A stretch of 26,851 nucleotides of DNA, from the IMG/VR virus record IMGVR_UViG_2802429248_000006, positions 1-26,851 of that record, one strand, 5' to 3'. The notes beneath the pieces are model-generated. The model saw only the letters and a list, made by a program, of their open reading frames with translations. It was not told the DNA's origin and ran no database searches. A program made the position numbers and the translations under genes. The stretch is from a virus (lineage: Duplodnaviria; Heunggongvirae; Uroviricota; Caudoviricetes). Positions 14,215 to 26,851 of this stretch are shown here, piece by piece (the first letter of the stretch is position 1; every line of letters begins with the position of its first letter).

Positions 14215-15318
14215 TTAATCTTGCTCAGGCTCATAACGTGGTTCAATACTGCCAAAATTAACATATTTAATAACCGACGTTAACTCTATATCCTCAGCGT
14301 CCATATTATCATAATTCCTATCGAAATCATTAAATATGGTAAAGATCACACTGGTAGTATCATCAACTTCTGTAAACTCCGTTGTAGCAGCCAAGTAAAC
14401 ATTATCTTTATCTATAGAATCGTAATGATAAAAATTAAATTCACACTCAGCATTATATGTTACTGTGACTTTAATCTCAAAAGTCGCATAATCTTGACTA
14501 ACATCTATAACATTAATAGAAGGTTCAAACTCAACGTCTGATACATAACAATAGTTAGCCTCCGGCTCAAAACTAAGGTAGGAATCAGCCTCTGCCATAA
14601 AACTCACATCATCATAACGGCTAATAACTACACTTCTAATAGAGTCCAATAGGGTAATAGATTTTCCAGCCTCTATATCGAGCATTAAACGCTGAGCAAA
14701 CTCATATGGAGCTGTTCTAGGTTGAAAGTGCGTTAATGCTTCGCCTAAATCCTGAATGCAGGTTACATAATCTGAACCACTACAGTATTCAATCCATCCC
14801 TGGTCTCTTGAAATTGCTATTATTTTTTTATGAGATTTTTTAGCATAAGCCTCAATTGCAAATAGAACTGTTGCATCTGGAAACTCCTCCTTCCTTTTCT
14901 TTCTATCAGCGAAGGGCGGAGTTAAATTAAAATAAGCATCAAATACTTCATCAAGTGTTGTATAGTCACTACACTTAATTTCAACCGCACCACATTTTTT
15001 CAAATATTCTTCTATCCTTGAAGAGGCCAACGCATCAGAACTGACCATTTGTATAGAGTTTTCAAAAATAGATTCAGTCTCTTTGCTGGTTAGCAAAGAA
15101 TGTATCAGTGCATCTTTAAGAGATTTATCCAGTGCATCTTGTGATTCTTTAATTTTTTTTGATAGATGACTTTGCACTTCATTTTTCACGATGTCAGGCA
15201 TAAGAAAATCCACTTGGCTATGACAAAACTGCTTCATCCGTGCAAGCATACCTTCGTTAAAACGCCAGTGATAATTATCAATAGTTTGTGTATCTAAAAC
15301 TATAGCATCGTATGACAC
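14215..15318 (-). CDS. Hypothetical cargo protein, 367 aa; N-terminal PIN-like nuclease-type fold suspected, C-terminal acidic beta-rich domain of unknown function
   Basis: Long intact ORF with GTG start and an AAGGAG Shine-Dalgarno; visibly AT-rich against the GC-rich flanks; N-terminus AIVLDTQTI plus later acidic residues (E47, PDATVL, SRDQGW) resemble a PIN-like pattern. Confidence 0.6.
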   Translation of the reverse strand: MSYDAIVLDTQTIDNYHWRFNEGMLARMKQFCHSQVDFLMPDIVKNEVQSHLSKKIKESQDALDKSLKDALIHSLLTSKETESIFENSIQMVSSDALASSRIEEYLKKCGAVEIKCSDYTTLDEVFDAYFNLTPPFADRKKRKEEFPDATVLFAIEAYAKKSHKKIIAISRDQGWIEYCSGSDYVTCIQDLGEALTHFQPRTAPYEFAQRLMLDIEAGKSITLLDSIRSVVISRYDDVSFMAEADSYLSFEPEANYCYVSDVEFEPSINVIDVSQDYATFEIKVTVTYNAECEFNFYHYDSIDKDNVYLAATTEFTEVDDTTSVIFTIFNDFDRNYDNMDAEDIELTSVIKYVNFGSIEPRYEPEQD

Positions 15319-15658: not shown

Positions 15659-15891
15659 TTAATGCAGCCAGCTGTCGTCTTCCCACACCTTCTGCATAAT
15701 TTTCATCACTTGTTTTCTTTCTTCGTCCAGTTGCAGTCCGGTTAGTTCCACACCGTTAGAGCTACCTTTGCGAATGCGAATTACCGTTTTGGATACAGGG
15801 GGCGCAGATTGCGGTAAAGCTCGGATTCAAGGGCGTCCAGGGTAGACTGGCTAATCTTCTGCTCTTTATCGATCATTATTTCAATGCGCAT
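15659..15891 (-). pseudogene. dinI: DinI-like gene interrupted by a 1-nt frameshift in an A4 run
   Basis: N-terminal 29 aa MRIEIMIDKEQKISQSTLDALESELYRNL resemble DinI; reading stops after RPLYPKR, but the -1 frame continues ...VIRIRKGSSNGVELTGLQLDEERKQVMKIMQKVWEDDSWLH, matching the DinI C-terminus; shift point is the A-run at ~15787-15790. Confidence 0.65.
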
Positions 15892-15901
15892 AAAAGTCAC
15901 C

Positions 15902-16090
15902 TCAGCTGATGACATCCATTGAGCGGTTGTATTCGTGGGTTCTGATTTTTGCCATGAGTTCATCTGTTAGTTCAGAAACCCACTGCAGAGCCAGCCCCTT
16001 CTCTTCATCACTACACTCACTAGCCGCTACAAGCTTAAGAAAAAAATCAATGCGCTGGAGCTTCAAAGACTCCAAAAAATAGTCCTGCAT
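15902..16090 (-). CDS. Small SOS-regulated protein (62 aa), possible Tum-like antirepressor N-terminal module
   Basis: ORF 15902..16192 trimmed to the internal ATG preceded by AGGAGGAAAG; sits directly downstream of the LexA box and upstream of the DinI-like gene. Confidence 0.45.
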   Translation of the reverse strand: MQDYFLESLKLQRIDFFLKLVAASECSDEEKGLALQWVSELTDELMAKIRTHEYNRSMDVIS

Positions 16091-16132
16091 CTTTCCTCCT
16101 ATGACACCACAAGAAATACTGTATGTATAACC

Positions 16133-16151
16133 ACTGTTTATATTTACAGTA
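16133..16151 (-). promoter_or_regulatory. LexA box (SOS operator)
   Basis: aCTGTttatatttACAGta fits CTGT-N8-ACAG with an AT-rich spacer; located just upstream of the small ORF and overlapping an AT-rich promoter-like region. Confidence 0.7.
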
Positions 16152-16243
16152 TATAATAATCTTACTGATGTAAAACGTTTTTTTACGTTCATCAGCCTGA
16201 TATGCCTGGTATTATTAAGAGCACGAATTGTTAATCCGCGTAA

Positions 16244-18685
16244 TTAATACAGGTTCCGCCACTTATCATCTTCCCGCAAACGCTGGTTCCGATAGAAGAT
16301 ACGCAAGCCTGCTCCTGACGGAATACTGCCGCCGCGAAGGAGTAAATCGACCTCTTTCTCGCTACCATCAAATCCTCTGGACTTCAGCTCATAGACGAGC
16401 TGCTGTCGCTGATGATCTGTAATTCGCTGTTTGTAGTCTTTACGCCGTTTCGGTTTCACCAGGCGTAACCTTGCTGCCAGTTCCCGGCGCTCTTTTTTGC
16501 TCATACTGTGCAGATAATCGTGCAACTCCTTGTCATCCATGCGGGTAATATCCGTTCTGGTGTCCCCATCAGCTGATTTATCTTTCTCCTGTTGGTTCAA
16601 ATTTTCAGCAAGGGGACAGTTATTGCCACGAGTCCAAGGGGCGCAAGCGCCCTGGTCGGCTGCCGCCTCCTGAACGTCAACGGCCTTACGAACCATTTTC
16701 CACTTCACGGCATGAGTGCAGATCTTGCCCTCTGCAATGGGTGACCAGATGCCATAAATACGAATGCCGTGATCGCCATAGGCGGTCGGCTCTTCGTTAA
16801 TTTCATAAGCGGTTCTGATGAGGTGATATTTGCGGGGAACCAGTACGCCGCCCTGCTTCATGATGTAGGTGGCAAAACAACCAGCATCAGCAGCAGCCAG
16901 GATGGCATCAAGGCGCGGGTTATCCAGTACCGGCGCACCTGCTTTTTTGTCGCCCTGTTGCCTTGCCGCCTGACCAGCCAGCAATCGCAGTTCACGGTAA
17001 GCCTGACGCCCCGGAATGCCAAAGAAGCGGAATTGCTGAACACGATGCAGAGACGCCCAGGCATTAACGTATTCAGCGTTATCACGCAGGGATTTACCCG
17101 TTTCCTTGCTGATCTCGCCAGCCAGACCACGCCCGTCAATGTTCTTACTGATGTATTTCGCGATGTAGCTTGTTGGCGTACCTTTGCGCGGGTTTATCAG
17201 CTCAGACTTAAAGCGTGGTCCCGTGTTATTACCCAGCTCCTCGCGGTCTTCACGAATGGCAAACTTACGCAACAAAGCAGTAATGGCGCGGCGATCTTTT
17301 TTGCGCATAAAACACAACAGGTGCCAGTGAACTGTACCGTCATGATGCGGCTCAGCCACCCGCACGCCATACCAGCGCAATCCGGCTTTGTGCATCGCCT
17401 TACGAAATGCAGCAAACATGCCGACCAGATAATCACTGCTTTGTCTTACCGTCGCATTTGTCCAGGTCGGGTTGGGCCTGCCGTTATTTAGCGTGGAATG
17501 GAAACGTGACGGACAGGTGATGGTGTAGAAAACGGCGCAGTCACTGCGCATTTCCGCGATAAGCTCCAGACCTTTAACACAGGCCATCATCTCATTGCGG
17601 CGATGCGCCGGGTTGCTGCTGCTGGCGTTTACCACATCTTCCATATCCAGCGTGTCGCCGTTTTCGTTCACCAGTTCATGAGAACGGAAAAACTCCAGCG
17701 ACTTACGGCGCTGCTCACGTTTATGCATCACGGCTTCATAGCTGACATAGGGAGATGCTTTTTTGCTGACCAGGCAGACAGCACGCAACTGCTCTTCCCG
17801 CCATTCGCAGCGCATCTTCCATAATTTCCGATACCACCAGTCGGCACACAACATACGCGCCAGCGAACCCGGAATGAGTTCATAGGGCACGGGTTTGCGA
17901 CGCTTTCTTTTCCGACGAAGTTGCTCAAACGCAGGCGGGATAACATCCAGTCGCAGGGTTTCCGCTGCCACCTTTTCCCATGTCTTGCGGATTTCTTCTG
18001 GCTTAACATCATCGGTGGCGTACAAATCACCACAAGCGGCATCAAGGCACATGCTCATATGCGCAGCTACCAGGGTGGACAGGCGTTTCACCTGATCCTG
18101 ACTCATTTCAGGCAGGATCAGCAGGCCGTCCAGCCCTTCATGGCTCGCCATAAAGCGAAAAGAAGTGGATAGCTGACTGTCGCGTACATGCTCCAGCCGT
18201 TCCAGACATGGCTTAATCGTCTCACGCAAATAGCGGGAATAAGCCTTTGGCCTGCCCAGGCTGCTGAAGTATTCAATACGTTGCATCAGCGGCTTGCTGA
18301 TATGGGAAGGCTGGGCGTTAACGTCCGCCAGAATGACCATGTCCGGATTAAAACGCTGCTGCTCATGCGCCAGCTTTGCCCGGCTAATGAGCTTATCCTG
18401 CTCCATTTCGCGTTGGACAGGATCACGGGATTCATTAAAGAAATAACGCTCCCAGACCTGATCACTCAGTGCCTCGCGGCGCACTTGTTCCTGCTCGTTA
18501 TCGGCAGCGTACAGAGTGATCAGGTTTGAAAGCGCAGAAACCGGCGCAACTTCCGCCGGGTCCAGATAAGGGTTAATGGCTTTCTTAGGTAAATTCCACG
18601 AATAACCCCCGGCAGAATTCTCAATGCTACCGGAAGTTACACTGACAAATGGATCGGCAAGACGGCCTGTGCTGATCTCTGTCAC
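16244..18685 (-). CDS. A: Replication initiation protein A (rolling-circle HUH endonuclease)
   Basis: 813-aa ORF with P2 A-type motifs ([25 protein letters not shown]); GTG start overlaps the upstream stop (GTGA). Confidence 0.9.
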
Positions 18686-19692
18686 TCACAGACTCCTGCA
18701 TATACACTGCTGCACACCGCTTTATCATTCATGCCTGCCAGCAGGTCAAACTGCATACCGCCCCGAGTCGTTAAGGCCCAGTCCCGATAAGTTTCAATGC
18801 CATAAGCATCAACAGTTATGACTTCGATCCGTTTTTCATCACGGCGCGGATCATGCGTGGATGGAAAGAACGTTGAATTGCCACGTCTTGAACATTCCGC
18901 AACCAGTCTTTCCCACTCAGCCACTCGGCGGATTTCTTCTGGCCAGCGTTGGAAAATCTCAGCAAGTTCTGACTTGCGAGCATGAATACATGGCATACAA
19001 CCGACACGACTGCATCCCTGCATATAAAGGGGGTTAGGCTTAATGCCATGACGTTTGGCAATAGCAAACACATCCTCATGCAGCCAATTAAGGATCGGAC
19101 GATAAACATGCAGGCCCAGAGTATTGTCTGCATCGTCCTCCCACTCAGGCAACAATGCACGTTCCGGTGATTCCTGCCCCCGGACTCCTTGCCAGCTGAT
19201 TACCTCATCGTATTCATCCAGAGCCGGATCGATTACCTGTGTACGTATTGGTTCATGTTTCAGTTCAAAAGTGCAGAAACGAGCTTTTGTTGAAGGGAAG
19301 CGACCTTTCCACATGCACAAATCAAGAAACGGAACGCCGGTTGGTTTAAGGATTTCCAGTGCCCGGTAAATACGTTCCTCAGCCTCATCTGTCGACATAC
19401 CACATTCCTCAACGAGAGAAATGGGCCACTTTTCCGCAATGAATTTACGTTTCCCTTCTATCTGGCGTGTGAAATCCGCTTTGACGCGAATAATCTTGCC
19501 CAGCTTTGATTCCAGATAATCCAGATATTCTATTGTCTGTGGATGTTCATGACCCGTATCGGCAAATACAGAAATATGCGGAACATCGTTTTCAATGGCT
19601 CTTAACCATTGAGCGAGACTATCTTTGCCACCAGAAGTAGTGATGATGTTAATGGTGCTTGAGGCAAAGCAACGCGGATCGATAGCATTCAT
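18682..19692 (-). CDS. PAPS-reductase / DndC-like PP-loop ATP pyrophosphatase family protein
   Basis: 336-aa ORF with PP-loop motif (TSGGKDS) and a C-terminal cysteine cluster (CSRVGCMPC); ATG overlaps the Dam stop (ATGA). Confidence 0.75.
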
Positions 19693-20537
19693 GCGCGTAC
19701 CTCAACGGTACGGTCAGAGCCGCTGGCAAAATCGACACCAAACCACCCAGCTGATTTGGTGGCAATGATTTCTGTTGCAGATTTACTCTCGCCAGCTGAC
19801 ACGCCAATGCTGCGTTTTGACTTGATGTAGTGGTGAGTGAAATTGCGATACAGCGAACGGATCAGGGATGTGTCACTGTTAGAAACAATGACCGGATGAC
19901 CTTCAGATGATCGATGTTCAAGAACGGATGCCAGGTGATACTGGTCATCTTCAGTGAAGCCATCAGTGTGATAGCCGGAAAACGTACCGTCATAAGGCGG
20001 ATCGCAATACACCACATCCCCCACCTTCAACATCGCCAGCGTTTCATCAAAGCTGGCGCAGATAAACGTTGCCTGCTGGGCTTTCTCTGCAAATGCGCGA
20101 ATTTCTTTTTCAGGGAAATACGGATTTTTATAATTACCGTAGGGAATGTTGAAATACCCGCTCTTGTTATAGCGACATAACCCACGGTAACCATGACGAT
20201 TGAGATACAGAAAATATACCGCTTTTATGAAATCAGTAATTTCAGTGGAGTAATTAAACTCCTGCCTTATGTTGTAATAAGCCACCTCCCTGTTTGCTTC
20301 CTCAAATAAAGCTCTGGCACGAGATATAAACGCCTCACAATCAGCAGCAACCTTTTTATAGAGGTTGATTAAATCAGGATTAATATCCGCAACAAGATAG
20401 CTGGGGTAATCCGTCTCCATCATCACTGCACAGGAACCCGCGAAAGGTTCAACCAGTCGCGGGCCAGCAGGAAGATGCTTTTTCAGTTCGGACATTATGG
20501 CGGTTTTATTTCCCGCCCATTTCAGGATAGTGCTCAT
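19689..20537 (-). CDS. dam: DNA N6-adenine methyltransferase (Dam-like)
   Basis: ORF 19689..20597 trimmed to the ATG ([11 protein letters not shown]) behind a GGAGGTG Shine-Dalgarno; motif I (FAGSCAV) and motif IV (DPPY). Confidence 0.85.
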
Positions 20538-20761
20538 ACAGCACCTCCGTTGTAATGTTTGCCTTTCAGCTCTGCGATTTCCTGACAGGTAATGCAAAGC
20601 TGCACACCCGGAATGGCACGACGGCGTGCTGGCGGAATTGGCGCTTCACACTCAATGCAAAGCACACGAGACACGCCCGGTGTTTTGGCACGGGCAGCAC
20701 GAATATGGCGCTGGCGTTCTTCTTCAACGCGCTGCTGTACGAGATCCATTGCATCAGCCAT
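20534..20761 (-). CDS. TraR/DksA-type C4 zinc-finger protein
   Basis: 75-aa ORF with CxxC...CxxC (CIECE...CITCQ); stop overlaps the Dam start (ATGA). Confidence 0.7.
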   Translation of the reverse strand: MADAMDLVQQRVEEERQRHIRAARAKTPGVSRVLCIECEAPIPPARRRAIPGVQLCITCQEIAELKGKHYNGGAV

Positions 20762-20994
20762 TAGTGGATCTCCTGCGCTTCGTTCTGGATTGCTTCAGCA
20801 GTTACACGCAGCAGTTCTGCCGCTTCGACGTGGTTTAGCTGGCTGGATGTGATATGACACGCCAGGCTATCAAGGCGAGCTGCCATTGCTTCAGCCCTTG
20901 CCCGGCGTTCTTCCAGACGAGCCTCTGTCAGTAAAATATTAAGCCCTGCGTCGTCCGGTCCGGTTTTAGTCGTGAGGGTTTCAATATTACGCAT
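20761..20994 (-). CDS. Hypothetical early protein
   Basis: ORF 20761..21000; internal ATG preceded by AGGAGA; same strand as the early operon. Confidence 0.5.
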   Translation of the reverse strand: MRNIETLTTKTGPDDAGLNILLTEARLEERRARAEAMAARLDSLACHITSSQLNHVEAAELLRVTAEAIQNEAQEIH

Positions 20995-21061
20995 AATCAA
21001 TTCTCCTGAATTTAGATAAAGGGATGCCCGGCGGGTTTACGCCATGATTTTCATTAATTGG

Positions 21062-21403
21062 TTAATTCGGCATGGTTAGCCGTCTGGGAAATAAGCTCAC
21101 CACTGCACGAAAATGATTCATTGCTTTAATCAGCTCCCGCTTTTCGTCAGTGGTCAGCTCATTAATGCTGATGCTATGACGTTCAGCTGGAATTTTTGCC
21201 ATAAAGAATATGGCAGCCAGTGCTCGTTTATTTTGTTCGTTATTGATATCCCGTGGATCACGCATATCTTTAATAAACCGCTCAAGCTCTGACTCAATAT
21301 TCAGGCCAAAAACTTTCGCCCTTAATTCCGCTATGTGATTAAGTCCATTCAGGCGTTCACCGGGACTTAATGGAACAGTCGCCGCAGCGCCTTCAATAGC
21401 CAT
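21062..21403 (-). CDS. Hypothetical protein (113 aa)
   Basis: Intact ORF in a lower-GC patch; divergent from the plus-strand ORF at 21485. Confidence 0.5.
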   Translation of the reverse strand: MAIEGAAATVPLSPGERLNGLNHIAELRAKVFGLNIESELERFIKDMRDPRDINNEQNKRALAAIFFMAKIPAERHSISINELTTDEKRELIKAMNHFRAVVSLFPRRLTMPN

Positions 21404-21484
21404 TTACGCATCCCACAACACATCTACTAAAAAATTTTTGATATGATCCATTACCAACATATTGATAGCTAGAAGGAATCATCA

Positions 21485-21733
21485 ATGTTGAACCCGGTTG
21501 AAAGAGAGCGTATAGAGCAACTTGAAAACGAGATCTCCAGTCTTCGCGATGAGGTTGCTGTTCAACGAATTCTTGTTTCAGGTCTGATCCACTCCTTATT
21601 TCGAACTGACTCAGCAAATCAATCTGCATTTTTTGAGCTCCTCCGCGAAGAATTAAACAAACTTCCTTTAGGTTCGGTTAAACAACAAGAATTCACTCAT
21701 CTGATACAGACACTGATAGATCGTTATCGATAA
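21485..21733 (+). CDS. Hypothetical small protein (82 aa) on the opposite strand to the early operon
   Basis: ATG with an AAGGAA Shine-Dalgarno and an upstream TTGATA -35-like hexamer; AT-rich; heptad-like N-terminus (ERERIEQLENEISSLRDEVAV). Confidence 0.45.
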   Translation: MLNPVERERIEQLENEISSLRDEVAVQRILVSGLIHSLFRTDSANQSAFFELLREELNKLPLGSVKQQEFTHLIQTLIDRYR

Positions 21734-21948
21734 ATATTTCGCCGATAACGTTCAAGAGGTGATGTCTTTATACGCATCACTTCTTGTACTTTTTCACCAC
21801 GTATAAAGGTTCCATCCTTTAGCGTGAAAAAGTAGCTACCATCGCCCGACAACGACGGATAGCAACAGAGCAAATCATCTTCAGGTACTGAATAATTCTC
21901 CCCTCTGTAACGAAACTGATAAACCACTTCACTTTCTGCCGCATACAT
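21724..21948 (-). CDS. Hypothetical protein (74 aa)
   Basis: ORF on the early-operon strand; overlaps the 3' end of ORF 21819..22145 in another frame. Confidence 0.4.
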   Translation of the reverse strand: MYAAESEVVYQFRYRGENYSVPEDDLLCCYPSLSGDGSYFFTLKDGTFIRGEKVQEVMRIKTSPLERYRRNIYR

Positions 21949-22115
21949 TTGGACTTTCTCCGTTTCCTCGTGGTCAATTCAGACAGCAATTCATCTTGTG
22001 AATAACATGGATGCCAGCGTTTACCATCCTCACCCATGATCCAGCCGTGACCGTAGTGCATTGCCGGGCTTTGTTTTACCAGCAGCGATGCAAATGATGG
22101 TTCTTTCGTCAGCAT
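21819..22115 (-). CDS. Hypothetical protein downstream of cII; 3' portion overlaps the next ORF and may be read-through
   Basis: ATG 8 nt after the cII stop with a GAGGTG Shine-Dalgarno; C-terminal third overlaps 21724..21948 and looks low-complexity. Confidence 0.35.
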   Translation of the reverse strand: MLTKEPSFASLLVKQSPAMHYGHGWIMGEDGKRWHPCYSQDELLSELTTRKRRKSKCMRQKVKWFISFVTEGRIIQYLKMICSVAIRRCRAMVATFSR

Positions 22116-22122
22116 AAGCACC

Positions 22123-22632
22123 TCACAGCAAACCAAATGAAGCACCGAGGCCAGTCACGGTATCAACTGCACTCGCCATCGCAGGGTTAGCCTGTAAACG
22201 GGCCTGCAATGAAACAGCAGCCAACGCCATCAGTCGTGTTATAGAGTTAATGCTGCTGATAGCATCACGACGGCCTGCACTGGTTTTTACATCGCCAGAT
22301 ACCGCGCCTGCAGCTACACGCCCGATCTCTGCTGTTGCACTCATGACGTAATGCGGCAGTTTCTCTTTTGCCACCTCATTAATCGGAACACATGGCAGGC
22401 AGTGAATCTGTGCCAGAAAACCATCTACCAGTGTTGAGTCTTCTGTCAGATCAGTAAGCAACCAAATTTCTGGTGCGGTTAATAAATGAGGTTGAGCTGG
22501 ATTCAGCTTGTTCCGCAGAATCTGCACATTCATACCTGCACGTTCTGCCAGTTGCACCAAGTTGTGGCGCAATGCAAATGCACGACAGGCTTCATCAAAA
22601 TGTGGATGTTTGGAAACTTGGTAATCAAACAT
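22123..22632 (-). CDS. cII: 186 CII-like transcriptional regulator
   Basis: ORF trimmed to [19 protein letters not shown]...; N-terminal HTH-like segment ([16 protein letters not shown]); second gene of the rightward early operon as in 186. Confidence 0.65.
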
Positions 22633-22664
22633 AGTCGACACTCCTGATGCATCCCAAAATGGAA

Positions 22665-22886
22665 CTAGTTGAATACAACATTGCAATCAGTAAGTGCATC
22701 AACGGTAAGAGCAGCAAGGTTGATCATTACCTTTTCTCTTTTCTTGTCTTTCCGAAGTCGATGGCGAGGGATACGACCATCAGCCAGCATATCGTTGATG
22801 GTGTCGATAGAAAGACCAGTAAGTTCGCTATAACGCTCAATTGTGACGTGTGGCGTATTCAGAGTTATTGAAATGTTAGGGGTCAT
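22665..22886 (-). CDS. apl: Apl/Cox-like excisionase-repressor
   Basis: 73-aa HTH protein ([24 protein letters not shown]), first gene of the early operon, divergent from cI. Confidence 0.65.
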
Positions 22887-22973
22887 GATGCAACATCTCC
22901 TATTGGCTTGTGGTGAGCCGGTATTAATCGTGACAAAACATCACAAAACGGAGAATAGGTTCACATAAAGAAT

Positions 22974-23912
22974 ATGTCAACTCAAAAAATCACATTTCGC
23001 CATATTGAAGATAGTCTGAAAGCTATGGTCATGCAGAATCGTGGAGGGCAAAAAGTCATTGAGAGGATACTCAAGGCCTATGGTTTCAAATCACGCCAAG
23101 CCTTCTGTAAGCATCTTGGTATTTCACAAAGCACAATGGCTAATAGATATGCACGCGATACCTTCCCTGCTGATTGGGTTGTTATATGTTCAATGGAAAC
23201 TGGCGCATCCCTAGAATGGCTGGCCTTTGGTTCTAACAATGCAGAAGAAAGTTTCCCCCCTTATGTGGAACAACATGATGAAACAGTCCCACATGAGGGG
23301 TTTAACAGCAACGCTCATCAATCATCCTTTAAGCGCCGCATTGAGAATCACATTGAGCTTACTAACGGAGGAAAAGCCGCGATAGAGAGGATTGTTAATG
23401 CTTACGGGTTTAAAACCCGCCAAGCCTTAGCCGACCACCTTGGTATTTCAAAAAGCACATTAGCCACACGATACATGCGAGATTCTTTCCCTGCGGATTG
23501 GGTGATTAAATGCGCATTAGAAACCAAAGCGGATCTCGCCTGGCTAGTTACAGGAATCGAAACACCAAATAGTTCACAAGAAGAAAACACTGTAATTTTA
23601 AATAAGTTCAATTTAGTCAATGGCGTGCTTGTCGAGTCAGGTTTTTTATCCATGGATCGGTGTCTACTTCCGAAGCAAGAAACTAGCAGCTTGATGTTTG
23701 TAAGCAATGGAGAAAAACATGTCATATGTGATAAAGAATTTCACCTAATTAGAGATGGAAAATGGTTAGTAGGAATTGACAATGAGTTATCTTTAAAAGA
23801 GTTAACTCGTTTACCTAAGAACAAAATTCTTGTTTCTGGTGGGAGTAAGGATTTTGAGTGTTCCATTGAGGATATTCAAATTATAGCCAGCATTATCTTA
23901 ACAATACAATAA
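22974..23912 (+). CDS. cI: CI-like immunity repressor with two tandem N-terminal HTH domains
   Basis: 312-aa ORF; residues ~27-95 and ~130-200 are clear paralogous copies (ERILKAYGFKSRQAF...FPADWVVICSMETGASLEWL vs ERIVNAYGFKTRQAL...FPADWVIKCALETKADLAWL), resembling the 186 CI N-terminal domain as I recall it. Confidence 0.7.
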   Translation: MSTQKITFRHIEDSLKAMVMQNRGGQKVIERILKAYGFKSRQAFCKHLGISQSTMANRYARDTFPADWVVICSMETGASLEWLAFGSNNAEESFPPYVEQHDETVPHEGFNSNAHQSSFKRRIENHIELTNGGKAAIERIVNAYGFKTRQALADHLGISKSTLATRYMRDSFPADWVIKCALETKADLAWLVTGIETPNSSQEENTVILNKFNLVNGVLVESGFLSMDRCLLPKQETSSLMFVSNGEKHVICDKEFHLIRDGKWLVGIDNELSLKELTRLPKNKILVSGGSKDFECSIEDIQIIASIILTIQ

Positions 23913-23955
23913 CATTGCAGACATTACTTTTAAATACTTACTGGAGGAGTCTAAA

Positions 23956-25725
23956 ATGAATCATCATCTTTCAAAGATTTCTATAAAAAACTTTAGATCT
24001 TGCAAAGATATTGATATCAATTTTTCTTCATTCACGCCTTTAATCGGTTACAACAATGCTGGTAAGTCAACGATTTTAAATGCTATTGAATGGCTTTTTA
24101 AGAAAAAACTTTTGTCCTCTGATGATTATACTAATCCAGATAACCCTATAGAAGTTATAGGTACAGTTAAGGGTATTACTGAAGATATTTTGTCAGCTTT
24201 AACAGAAGAAAACAGAACTAGAATTTCACCCTACATTATTGATGGGGTATTGATATTTAAGCGTCAACAGCCTGTTGGTGCTCAAAGTGCAAAAGACGTC
24301 AGATTATTAATTAAAAACCCAGAAAATAACGAATTCAGGACATCACCAACGGGTATTGAGAATGCGATAAAAGCTTTATTTCCAGACCCAATACGTATAG
24401 GTGCAATGGAAAATGCAGCGGATGATTCTTCAAAATCAAAAACAGGAACTACAATAGGTAAGTTGCTGGCAGAATTGAGTTGCAAAATAGAAGAGAAGCA
24501 CACTCAAAGGATACTAAGCCATTTAAATGCCGTTAATAGAAGAATGACTGCAACCGGTAATAAACGAATATCGGACCTCAATGATATTGATGATTCAATA
24601 AGTAGTAAAGTTGCTGATTTCTTCCCTGGGATAAGTTTAAAACTACACTTCGAACTCCCTGACTTCAAGGATATATTTAAATCAGGGACTGTAAAAGTAT
24701 ATGAAGATTCATTTCCCGGCATTGCTCGTGACTGTTCTTCTTATGGTCATGGCACACAGCGTTCGATTCAGATGGCTCTAATAAGACATTTAGCTGATAT
24801 AACCAACGGTGATGATATTAAAACAACTACTCTACTGTTAATAGATGAACCTGAGTTATATCTTCACCCATTTGCTATCGAACAAATTAGAGAATCTCTA
24901 AAAACACTATCTCATCATGGATATCAAATAATTTTCTCTACCCATTCATCTCAAATGATTACCTCTGACTTAGCAAAAGACACTGTGTTAATCAGAAAAA
25001 ACAGTCAGCGTGGCACTCATTGCAGATTAACATTAAAAGAAGCAGTCAATAAAGTAATCGAACAACGACCAGCACAAGCAACCCATTTATTTTCATTAAC
25101 ACAGTCTTCAAAAGTTTTGTTTGCTAACAATGTAATACTAACAGAAGGTAAAACAGAGACTACTCTGCTCCCATTTATTTTTAACAAAGTTAAAAATAAA
25201 ACATTAGGTCAGATGCAAATAGCACTAATTGAAACAGGGTCCGTTGAAAGTATATCTAAAACGATGCAAATTCTAAATTCAATGGATATACCTACAAAAG
25301 CAATTGTTGATTTAGATTTTGCGTTCCGCGGTGCAATAAGGAACAACTTCTTAGAACATAATGACGAGGATATTTTACGACTAAAAGAAATCTTGAGAAG
25401 TATGCATGCTAATGGAGAATGCACTCTCGATGGATCCGGTTTGCCTACAAAGGGTAGTAACACTACCGCAGCTGAAGCATTTGCTATTATGTCTCAAAAG
25501 CCCGGCGCCAGAGAATTTTTGTCATCATTAGCCGCAAAACTGAGAAATGCAAATATTTGGATTTGGCTAAATGGTTCGATAGAAAACCATTTGGGTCTTA
25601 CAGAAAAAAATGAATCAGTATGGGCTGATTTCAAAACAAAAGCAGATACACAACCTCTTTCAGATATCTGTGCAGATTTCGAAAGTATTGAGGCTTTAGT
25701 CGACTGGATTACCCCTGACGTATGA
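23956..25725 (+). CDS. old: OLD-family ABC-ATPase / TOPRIM nuclease (P2 Old-like, class 1)
   Basis: 589-aa ORF with Walker A (GYNNAGKST), Walker B (LLLIDEPELYLHP), TOPRIM-type glutamate (VILTEGKTE) and DxD (VDLDFA); GGAGGAG Shine-Dalgarno; AT-rich. Confidence 0.85.
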   Translation: MNHHLSKISIKNFRSCKDIDINFSSFTPLIGYNNAGKSTILNAIEWLFKKKLLSSDDYTNPDNPIEVIGTVKGITEDILSALTEENRTRISPYIIDGVLIFKRQQPVGAQSAKDVRLLIKNPENNEFRTSPTGIENAIKALFPDPIRIGAMENAADDSSKSKTGTTIGKLLAELSCKIEEKHTQRILSHLNAVNRRMTATGNKRISDLNDIDDSISSKVADFFPGISLKLHFELPDFKDIFKSGTVKVYEDSFPGIARDCSSYGHGTQRSIQMALIRHLADITNGDDIKTTTLLLIDEPELYLHPFAIEQIRESLKTLSHHGYQIIFSTHSSQMITSDLAKDTVLIRKNSQRGTHCRLTLKEAVNKVIEQRPAQATHLFSLTQSSKVLFANNVILTEGKTETTLLPFIFNKVKNKTLGQMQIALIETGSVESISKTMQILNSMDIPTKAIVDLDFAFRGAIRNNFLEHNDEDILRLKEILRSMHANGECTLDGSGLPTKGSNTTAAEAFAIMSQKPGAREFLSSLAAKLRNANIWIWLNGSIENHLGLTEKNESVWADFKTKADTQPLSDICADFESIEALVDWITPDV

Positions 25726-25773
25726 TTTAATATTTACATACATTGACCACTGGTCAAACATACAGTTAAATTT

Positions 25774-25798
25774 AGCCCTCTGACATGAGGGCTTTTTT
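25774..25798 (+). terminator. Rho-independent terminator immediately upstream of the int start
   Basis: AGCCCTC-tgacat-GAGGGCT followed by TTTTTT; the int ATG starts at 25799. Confidence 0.6.
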
Positions 25799-26851
25799 AT
25801 GGCAGTACGAAAACTCACCACAGGAAAATGGCTTTGCGAATGTTACCCCGCCGGACGTAGTGGGCGTCGGGTGCGTAAACAATTCGCCACCAAAGGCGAA
25901 GCTCTGGCTTTTGAGCGCCACACGATGGAAGAAACCGAAGCAAAGCCCTGGCTGGGTGAATCAGTGGATCGTCGAACACTGAAAGACGTGGTTGAGCTAT
26001 GGTTCAAACTACATGGTAAATCTCTGACAGCTGGGCAGCATGTCTATGACAAATTGCTGTTGATGGTTGACGCTCTGGGCAATCCTCTTGCAACCGATCT
26101 CACCTCTAAAATGTTTGCCCACTATCGAGATAAACGCCTGACAGGCGAGATCTACTTCAGCGAGAAATGGAAGAAAGGAGCAAGCCCGGTCACCATTAAC
26201 CTGGAGCAAAGCTATCTAAGTAGTGTTTTTAGCGAACTATCCCGTCTGGGCGAATGGTCGTATCCGAACCCACTGGAGAACATGCGAAAATTCACCATCG
26301 CAGAAAAAGAGATGGCATGGCTTACCCATGAGCAGATTGTTGAATTGCTGGCTGATTGCAAACGTCAGGACCCAATTCTGGCACTGGTAGTTAAGATATG
26401 CTTAAGCACAGGCGCACGCTGGCGTGAAGCCGTAAATCTTACCCGCTCACAGGTGACCAAATACCGAATTACCTTTGTCAGAACGAAGGGGAAGAAAAAC
26501 AGAAGCATCCCTATCAGTAAAGAGCTTTACGAAGAGATCATGGCGCTTGATGGGTTCAATTTCTTTACAGACTGCTATTTTCAATTTTTATCCGTGATGG
26601 AAAAAACGTCTATCGTGCTCCCTCGCGGTCAACTCACACACGTTCTGCGCCATACGTTTGCGGCGCACTTCATGATGTCGGGTGGAAACATTCTCGCCTT
26701 ACAAAAAATTCTCGGACACCACGATATAAAAATGACTATGCGTTACGCACATCTGGCACCAGATCATCTGGAAACGGCGCTCCGTTTCAATCCTCTGGCA
26801 ACGCTGCCAAGTGGCGACAAAGTGGCGGCAGCGGTTGGCATTACCCCGTAA
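25799..26851 (+). CDS. int: Tyrosine integrase (P2/186 Int family)
   Basis: 350-aa ORF; N-terminus parallels P2 Int (MAVRKLTTGKW...RRVRKQFATKGEALAFERHT); C-terminal catalytic region (HVLRHTFAAHF...LGHHDIKMTMRYAHL); stop is the last codon of the window. Confidence 0.95.
   Translation: MAVRKLTTGKWLCECYPAGRSGRRVRKQFATKGEALAFERHTMEETEAKPWLGESVDRRTLKDVVELWFKLHGKSLTAGQHVYDKLLLMVDALGNPLATDLTSKMFAHYRDKRLTGEIYFSEKWKKGASPVTINLEQSYLSSVFSELSRLGEWSYPNPLENMRKFTIAEKEMAWLTHEQIVELLADCKRQDPILALVVKICLSTGARWREAVNLTRSQVTKYRITFVRTKGKKNRSIPISKELYEEIMALDGFNFFTDCYFQFLSVMEKTSIVLPRGQLTHVLRHTFAAHFMMSGGNILALQKILGHHDIKMTMRYAHLAPDHLETALRFNPLATLPSGDKVAAAVGITP

Follow-up and report, generated by a model that had tools for sequence, protein, structure and literature searches.

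Few alternatives to the lambda switch have been studied as thoroughly as the wheel formed by the CI repressor of coliphage 186 (192 aa; PDB 2FJR and 2FKD), and every such study dealt with a protein with one DNA-binding head. Its three operators over the lytic promoter pR lie two helical turns from one another and are bound by neighbouring dimers of a 14-mer (PMC3675496). The wheel comprises seven dimers and wraps and loops DNA. Induction depends on a Tum-type antirepressor under LexA control and not on RecA-mediated self-cleavage. Here we describe a 186-type CI protein that carries two heads. Its gene lies in the viral (Caudoviricetes) IMG/VR record IMGVR_UViG_2802429248_000006, positions 1 to 26,851, a stretch of 26,851 nucleotides that is called the window below. 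The protein has the same PF07022 helix-turn-helix (HTH) and the same PF16452 C-terminal domain (CTD) as 186 CI, and the gene occupies the same position, next to facing pR and pL promoters with apl and cII downstream. For induction and for the three operators over pR, the likeness to 186 is one of sequence features only.

Three other repressors are instructive. An artificial lambda-186 hybrid with a foreign head on the 186 CTD oligomer still regulates promoters (PDB 7JVT; PMC8053113), which indicates that heads on this domain are interchangeable in practice. In the hybrid the head was replaced, whereas in the window protein a head was added. Phage repressors with two HTH domains are not unheard of, since two have been reported in phiCDKH01_17, an XRE-family lysogeny repressor of a Clostridioides difficile phage (PMC11172241). 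However, this protein belongs to an unrelated HTH family, has a host from a different phylum and lacks a 186-type CTD. The C repressor of P2 binds directly repeated half-sites (PMC1904268, PMC1904263). Like the window CI, it is the immunity repressor of related Peduoviridae phages with facing promoters, but it belongs to a small single-domain family that is not homologous to 186 CI.

A 186-type CI protein with two heads

The cI gene of the window and its parts are as follows.

22974..23912, plus strand: cI gene, 312 aa, two-headed 186-type immunity repressor; uninterrupted open reading frame (ORF), two PF07022 and one PF16452 Pfam matches
22974..23042, plus strand: N-terminal leader, residues 1-23, overlapping the pR -35 hexamer and candidate operator c; low synonymous divergence
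23043..23231, plus strand: head H1, residues 24-86, 'Q-type'; clusters with the heads of single-head 207-209-aa CIs
23127-23156, plus strand: codons of the H1 recognition helix QSTMANRYAR
23232..23366, plus strand: inter-head linker, residues 87-131, predicted flexible tether of about 45 aa; disordered in the structure model, hypervariable
23367..23561, plus strand: head H2, residues 132-196, 'K-type'; near the heads of single-head 185/197-aa CIs
23451-23480, plus strand: codons of the H2 recognition helix KSTLATRYMR
23586..23906, plus strand: C-terminal oligomerisation domain of the 186 CI type; PF16452, model matches 2FKD_A

The first-pass annotation, made from the DNA alone, had described a CI-like immunity repressor of 312 aa with two homologous HTH modules in tandem followed by a C-terminal domain, and this description is borne out. 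Pfam places PF07022 (Phage_CI_repr) on two stretches of the protein (whole-protein E 1.5e-58) and PF16452 (Phage_CI_C) on residues 210-308 (E 1.4e-22). The two heads align without gaps with 40 of 63 residues identical (BLASTP E 3e-32), which disposes of the concern that the segments might not be homologous. Their DNA is 65.6% identical, with proportions of synonymous and nonsynonymous differences (pS and pN) of 0.71 and 0.23. The domains and the gene context agree with a CI-type immunity repressor of a 186-like prophage, and RefSeq labels the product 'phage repressor protein CI'. The crystallised 186 CI (2FJR, 189 aa) aligns with residues 136-308 only, that is with H2 and the CTD; the first-pass contrast with a one-headed and much shorter 186 CI is thus correct.

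An AlphaFold2 (AF2) monomer model, built from a 41-sequence alignment (mean pLDDT 78.7, pTM 0.40), predicts two helical heads (helices at 25-85 and 133-193), a leader helix (13-20) before H1 and a beta-rich C-terminal domain (206-311). The modelled CTD superposes on 2FKD_A with a TM-score of 0.89 (rmsd 1.2 Å, 106 columns). Linker residues 89-126 have pLDDT values below 50, and the pTM of 0.40 implies no fixed arrangement between the domains. The model thus depicts a 186-like body with its native head H2, to which a second head, H1, is attached by a flexible tether of about 45 residues. Compared with 186 CI, the additions at the N-terminus are the second, heterotypic head, a leader of 23 aa and this disordered tether. 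The protein shares with the 186 family the PF07022 HTH and a PF16452 domain of 186 CTD fold; however, members of that family have one head per monomer and about 185-210 aa, and the possession of two heads is where the window protein departs from the characterised family. A short single-head isoform made from an internal start was considered and discarded, as no in-frame ATG, GTG or TTG follows the GGAGG at 23367.

Authenticity and distribution

Fourteen complete E. coli genomes contain a stretch of 1401 bp including cI that is at least 99.5% identical. Since the same uninterrupted ORF occurs in all of them, and since the two-module layout is kept across genera and in isolated phages, a frameshift, an assembly error or two adjoining genes merged through sequencing error can be dismissed with near certainty, and with them the possibility raised at first pass that the ORF is a fusion artefact.

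The two-module layout was found in 45 of the best 120 protein clusters (90% identity), from E. coli, Salmonella, Klebsiella, Citrobacter, Enterobacter, Kosakonia and Edwardsiella. A 587-bp probe that reaches from H1 across the linker to H2, with coverage of at least 80% required in one place, detected it in no fewer than 218 of the 5,426 complete E. coli genomes searched (about 4%). The model uropathogen CFT073 is among them, with a 308-aa CI that has both heads. Several deposited Klebsiella phages, 4LV2017 and ST11-OXA245phi3.1 among them, carry a two-headed CI annotated as 'repressor protein CI'. A search with H2 alone against 1.84 billion representative proteins returned about 28 proteins with two matching stretches among the best 150 matches, which include more distant two-headed families from Hafnia, Citrobacter, Edwardsiella, Enterobacter and Shewanella. 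Among species-representative genomes just 2 of 48 related loci are two-headed. Full-text literature searching did not find a description of a two-headed 186-type CI. The protein is therefore widespread but uncharacterised, and seems never to have been studied.

The search with one head also returned proteins with three to seven tandem related HTH modules: P0216 (834 aa), P0218 (1108 aa), P0226 (1426 aa), P0242 (997 aa), P0228 (343 aa) and P0263 (346 aa). The sequences of P0216, P0228 and P0263 have no CI-type C-terminal domain, and P0216 repeats the motif LRAQGYTxxQLAEHFGV.

Origin of the two heads

Across the 120 clusters, H1 shares a mean identity of 75% with the heads of single-head CIs of 207-209 aa, and H2 shares 72-83% with those of single-head CIs of 185 and 197 aa, while H1 and H2 share only about 60% on average. 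The recognition helices follow the same division: SQSTMANRYAR (Q-type) is found in most H1s and in the 207-209-aa class, and SKSTLA[TN]RY[ML]R (K-type) in H2s and in the 185/197-aa classes. The extended recognition segment of H2, ISKSTLATRYMRDSFPADW, is one residue away from the commonest segment of the 185-aa class, ISKSTLATRYMRDSFPAEW, and H2 shares 84% of its residues with the head of the single-head CIs P0033/P0036.

The DNA shows where the parts join. Window positions 22039-22901 and 23379-26793 match a single-head K-type prophage of Citrobacter (L058) at 75-78%, including its Old nuclease and integrase genes, whereas 22941-23219, which holds the operators, the leader and H1, matches a single-head Q-type prophage of Salmonella diarizonae (L055) at 76%. 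In addition, the N-terminal peptide of the 197-aa CIs, MSTSKYPSEIKINPNQGG, recurs just before H2 in two-headed proteins, in the last 17 or so residues of the linker. These breakpoints show a DNA mosaic in which a block of pR operators, leader and H1 was joined to a complete single-head CI. The 207-209-aa class (P0073; L055), which has the leader, H1 and pR operator layout in common with the window, and the 185/197-aa classes (P0036; L058/L065; L009), which share H2, CTD, apl and pL with it, appear to be the parental types; each has one head, and the window protein combines both. L058 also has the downstream Old nuclease and integrase of the window.

The two modules had been read as a simple tandem duplication, and this does not stand. 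A recent duplication within the gene is contradicted by the pS of 0.71 between the heads and by the closer relationship of each head to a different single-head lineage; the two head lineages separated long ago. Other two-headed proteins combine a K-type H2 with a 186-like SSS-type, another K-type or an SNS-type H1, which suggests that heads have been stacked or swapped more than once.

Selection on the parts

Both heads are under strong purifying selection, with saturated synonymous sites. Among two-headed loci pN is 0.02-0.11 for H1 and 0.12-0.19 for H2, with pS between 0.24 and 0.97 (0.24-0.80 for H1; 0.54-0.87 for H2 where its pN is 0.15-0.19). The linker and the C-terminal domain evolve much faster (pN 0.42-0.65), the linker, at 0.45-0.65, being hypervariable among relatives. 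Among loci with the same H1 type the leader has a pS of only 0.15-0.49, against 0.54-0.97 in the two heads; the exception to the high head values is H1 in the closest pair, the window and L002 (0.24). This abnormally low synonymous divergence implies a constraint at the DNA level inside codons 1-23.

The switch region and the head that probably reads pR

The gene order is that of 186 (cI, pR/pL, apl, cII ... A ... tum), and downstream of cI lie a P2-Old-type nuclease gene and then the integrase gene. The parts of the switch are as follows, both promoters being predictions.

22665..22886, minus strand: apl-like gene, 73 aa, first of the lytic operon; position of 186 apl, annotated 'MerR family/hypothetical'
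22123..22632, minus strand: cII gene, PF06892 (Pfam E 6.7e-42)
22952..22980, minus strand: predicted lytic promoter pR, -35 TTGACA 22980-22975, -10 TATTCT 22957-22952; consensus scan
22868..22896, plus strand: predicted lysogenic promoter pL, TTGAAA-17-CAACAT, facing pR; alignment to annotated 186 pL
22940..22951, plus strand: candidate CI operator a (ATCACAAAACGG), at the pR transcription start; exact TCACAWWWCG match
22960..22971, plus strand: candidate CI operator b (TTCACATAAAGA), in the pR spacer, within the near-palindrome GTTCACATA-N5-TATGTCAAC
22989..23000, plus strand: candidate CI operator c (ATCACATTTCGC), upstream of the pR -35, cI codons 6-9; exact motif match

The predicted pR scores 10/12 with a 17-nt spacer, and its position relative to cI resembles that of annotated 186 pR. 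The 186 pL to which pL was aligned reads TTGCGA-17-CATGAT followed by tccctattagcc. The gap between cI and apl is 87 bp against 129 bp in 186, and in the window the pR -35 overlaps the cI start codon. A 39-bp block, 22880-22918 (GGGGTCATGATGCAACATCTCCTATTGGCTTGTGGTGAG), takes in the predicted pL -10 together with the start and ribosome site of apl. No base of it differs among six loci from E. coli, Klebsiella phages, an unclassified Enterobacteriaceae isolate and Dryocola, whose CI proteins are only 52-58% identical. The Apl protein itself (WP_000188448.1) is identical in three of the E. coli genomes examined.

At first pass it had been suggested that repeated operator half-sites be sought here (22887-22973). 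Three candidate sites of TCACA type lie on the same strand at pR, 20 and 29 bp apart. The motif TCACAWWWCG has two exact matches in the whole 26.8-kb window, both at pR, although it was defined from the very sites that were later counted. Relative to the ATG of cI, operator a (position -33) has TCAC in 8 of 8 Q-type loci and operator c (+16) in 6 of 8; operator b (-13) is conserved in position, with the core TCAC in four of the eight loci and TCGC in the other four. Every third codon position of operator c is invariant across six loci. These sites look like direct repeats and are unlike those of 186.

Comparison of two-headed loci suggests which head uses these sites. With a K-type H2 throughout, four H1 types go with four operator sets: besides the TCACA type of the window, L060, whose H1 is 186-like, has palindromes of the ATTCTCACAAAATGTGAG type, L061, with a K-type H1, has the GTTCAC...GTGAY sites usual in 185-aa single-head phages, and L062 has yet another set. 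Single-head phages with a given head have the same motif at the same positions as the bearers of that head as H1 (L055 and the window; L008, L017, L058 and L061). On the simplest reading, pR is held by H1, the operator block and H1 travelling together.

Two earlier proposals are affected. A duplicated head was expected to alter operator spacing, but the sites at -33, -13 and +16 are also present in L055, and since this prophage has a single head, the second head has not re-spaced the operators. It was also thought that the extra head might define a distinct immunity type. The type rather appears to be set by H1, and so to be common to single-head Q-type phages.

Search for H2 sites and distal operators

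Phage 186 has distal FL and FR operators about 300 bp either side of pR. A scan for TTCAC-N4-6-GTGAA with at most one mismatch, which assumes a 186-like site shape, gave no match in window positions 19974-26851, while the same scan recovered the annotated pB, FL and FR of 186. Distal flanking sites of the 186 type were not found in this way. TCAC-N4-6-GTGA has no match in regulatory DNA and one in the whole window, within a capsid-region gene, as chance predicts; K-type palindromes (TCAC-N4-6-GTGA or TTCAC-N5-GTGAA) are absent from the early and switch regions. By these motif searches, the window appears to hold no recognisable cognate operator for H2.

Three candidates were set aside. An inverted match between 22598-22612 and 22983-22997, considered as an FR site, is explained by the conserved cII codons for KHPHF. 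An inverted repeat in linker-coding DNA about 300 bp from pR (23257-23300; CCCCTTATGTGGAAC...GTCCCACATGAGGGG; 44 bp, 15-nt arms with 13 of 15 positions complementary, 14-nt gap) might have been an FL site. However, it is absent from L002, L053, L054, L005 and L006, and 6 of 60 shuffles of the 2.5-kb region contain an equal one. In L060, L005 and L006 a former 197-class operator, GT(A/C/T)CCCAA(A/T)TGAGA, lies inside linker-coding DNA some 300-390 bp from the cI start codon; the corresponding relic at the pre-H2 junction of the window is degenerate (9/16) and confounded with coding constraint.

A Tum-type antirepressor candidate

15902..16090, minus strand: split-tum antirepressor candidate, 62 aa; same-position ORFs in single-head prophages
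16134..16149, minus strand: LexA box CTGTAAATATAAACAG upstream of the tum-like ORF; exact CTGT-N8-ACAG

A split tum has been described for PSP3 and Fels-2 (PMC3121763). The candidate shares only 16% identity with 186 Tum. Single-head prophages of both the Q-type and the K-type have a 62-aa ORF in the same place, and to these the candidate is 87-90% identical. Whether Tum varies together with the head type was examined, and the comparison is uninformative: the ORF is equally similar in prophages with Q heads, K heads or both, so it does not discriminate between readings of H2.

Within this split layout (window 15781-16192, minus strand), a short ORF follows the 62-aa ORF, and the end of the short ORF (MRIEIMIDKEQKISQSTLDALESELYRNLRPLYPKR) resembles the beginning of a DinI-like protein. 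In L004 and L063 the DinI-like genes found there encode 77 aa, and the window copy may thus be truncated.

The role of the second head

We consider it reasonably probable that the protein is a working immunity repressor of an SOS-inducible 186-type (Peduoviridae) prophage of E. coli, built by module fusion, with H1 acting on pR and H2 as an accessory. A cassette of pR operators, cI start and Q-type head was fused in frame to the 5' end of a complete K-type CI gene. By analogy with 186 CI, the C-terminal domain would dimerise and assemble into a higher oligomer. H1 would read the three same-strand TCACA-type sites over the pR start, spacer and upstream flank (22940-23000), silencing apl-cII lytic transcription and lifting interference on the facing pL. 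H2, close to the oligomer rim, would be a second DNA-binding head kept by selection, and would most likely provide accessory contacts, either with weak sites in its own switch or with the operators of related K-type phages. Induction would proceed through the LexA-controlled 62-aa Tum-type protein, without cleavage. The architecture, the mosaic, the purifying selection on the two heads, the variation of operators with H1 and the constant site positions are directly seen in the sequences; the DNA targets of each head, the oligomeric state and the function of H2 are inferred from them.

Several observations weigh against this picture. The assignment of operators relies on motif clustering and co-inheritance, the motif count is circular as noted above, and H1 adjoins the operators in the DNA, so that linkage alone could give the co-variation. 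The three sites are more like direct repeats than clean inverted ones, an unusual arrangement for a symmetric dimer. The pB promoter is outside the window; in a genome whose cI region is 100% identical (1401 bp), it shows one TTCACA-like half-site just past the -10, where 186 has two palindromes. With its low pTM, the AF2 model is uninformative on the geometry between heads or within an oligomer. Finally, part of the conservation of H2 may stem from recent exchange with single-head phages that need this head, and not from selection within two-headed proteins.

How H2 would contribute can be envisaged in several ways. Both heads may act on the switch of the phage itself, H1 anchoring the oligomer on three strong sites at pR while the rim-proximal H2 binds weak or degenerate TCAC sequences over pL and the 5' region of cI; such contacts would extend the wrapping and sharpen cooperativity, like the weak pL contacts in 186. 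We regard this as a tentative possibility. The ill-defined weak pL sites of 186 do wrap onto the wheel (PMC3675496). The operators of all head types in the family have a TCAC core, so that H2 could bind H1-type sites weakly, and the linker-embedded 197-class operator of L060, L005 and L006 could act as a distal site. In the window, however, this relic has decayed, and the palindrome at 23257-23300 lacks both conservation and statistical significance. Two-headed loci and those of 197-aa K-type single-head phages have the same block 22880-22918, while the Q-type single-head L055 differs there. This would suit H2 contacts, but the pL promoter, the identity of the Apl protein and the ribosome site of apl explain it equally well. 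Moreover, single-head Q-type phages have the same pR layout without any H2.

Alternatively, the target of H2 may lie in other phages. H1 would hold the phage's own pR, while H2 and the CTD would form a complete K-type CI acting on the pR of incoming single-head K-type phages. The protein would then be a natural dual-specificity repressor, for its own lytic promoter and, as an intact repressor, for a second and very common 186-like immunity group, and would give superinfection immunity against both groups. We regard this as doubtful. H2 and the CTD are collinear with, and 72% identical to, the whole single-head CIs P0033/P0036, the extended recognition segment is but one residue off that of the 185-aa class, and H2 keeps its native short connection to the CTD, so the oligomer geometry should be preserved. 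In E. coli, single-head CIs of the K-type are common, with 589 and 505 member sequences in their clusters, and heterotypic pairs of heads recur in several combinations, as well as in the Hafnia, Citrobacter, Edwardsiella and Shewanella families. This reading would also account for a head that is under purifying selection although no H2-type operator occurs in its own early region. It is nevertheless reached wholly by inference. Operator sequences vary from one K-type phage to another (L058, L008, L017 and the 197-aa class, GTCCCCAAATGGGAAC), and a similar helix is thus no guarantee of cross-binding. Some genomes match the probe in two places, so that two such genes can co-reside.

It is improbable that H2 is a passenger, an old head left behind by cassette capture and kept as a structural spacer or a dock for Tum without binding DNA. 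A fusion would naturally leave such a head in place, and the existence of single-head Q-type CIs of 207-209 aa indicates that H2 is dispensable for this operator set. The Tum-like protein, so similar in prophages with either or both heads, probably sees a conserved feature of the heads. But a neutral head would be expected to decay or to be removed by in-frame deletion, whereas the H2 helix is near the K-type consensus in 45 of 45 two-headed clusters and pN remains at 0.11-0.19 at saturated pS.

Cargo intervals and a related prophage copy

Between cI and int, on the plus strand (23956-25725), the window encodes a 589-aa protein that is a full-length PADLOC match to 'Old' (E 1.4e-234). P2 Old-type proteins are ATPase-TOPRIM nucleases. 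The same gene stands in the same place in the single-head prophage L058/L065, and other relatives have two hypothetical proteins (L002/4LV2017), a 144-aa protein with YdcA (L055) or a 322-aa protein (L060) there. The interval looks like a variable slot for defence cargo. A second cargo hotspot appears to lie between the tum/dinI region and the portal gene, where the window has a 367-aa ORF (14215-15318, minus strand) without a PADLOC match. The same slot holds a protein annotated as PIN-domain-containing in NZ_AP042701.1, GmrSD_N and HEPN with a DNA methylase in L063, GAPS4-type genes in L064 and an nSTAND1 protein in L065.

The cI region of NZ_AP042701.1 is 100% identical to that of the window. 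In this genome the annotation marks the portal gene as frameshifted and lists a tail gene and fil as partial (annotated lesions at L004 3558-4252 and 14461-14850 and at L001 5361-5516); this prophage copy may be defective. In the replication-gene region, the window has an extra 336-aa ORF (18682-19692) relative to this genome.

Implications for 186-type immunity

The two-headed CI offers a test of how extra heads affect operator choice, wrapping and cooperativity in a multivalent oligomer, and of how immunity specificities evolve through module exchange. Were H2 merely an accessory or a relic, the result would be a modest note on domain architecture. Whether one repressor polices two immunity groups bears on the competition between prophages and on the design of phage cocktails. 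If it does, a single gene would exclude two groups of competitors, and temperate phages would have, in the capture of head cassettes at the 5' end of cI, a general way to widen or switch their immunity.

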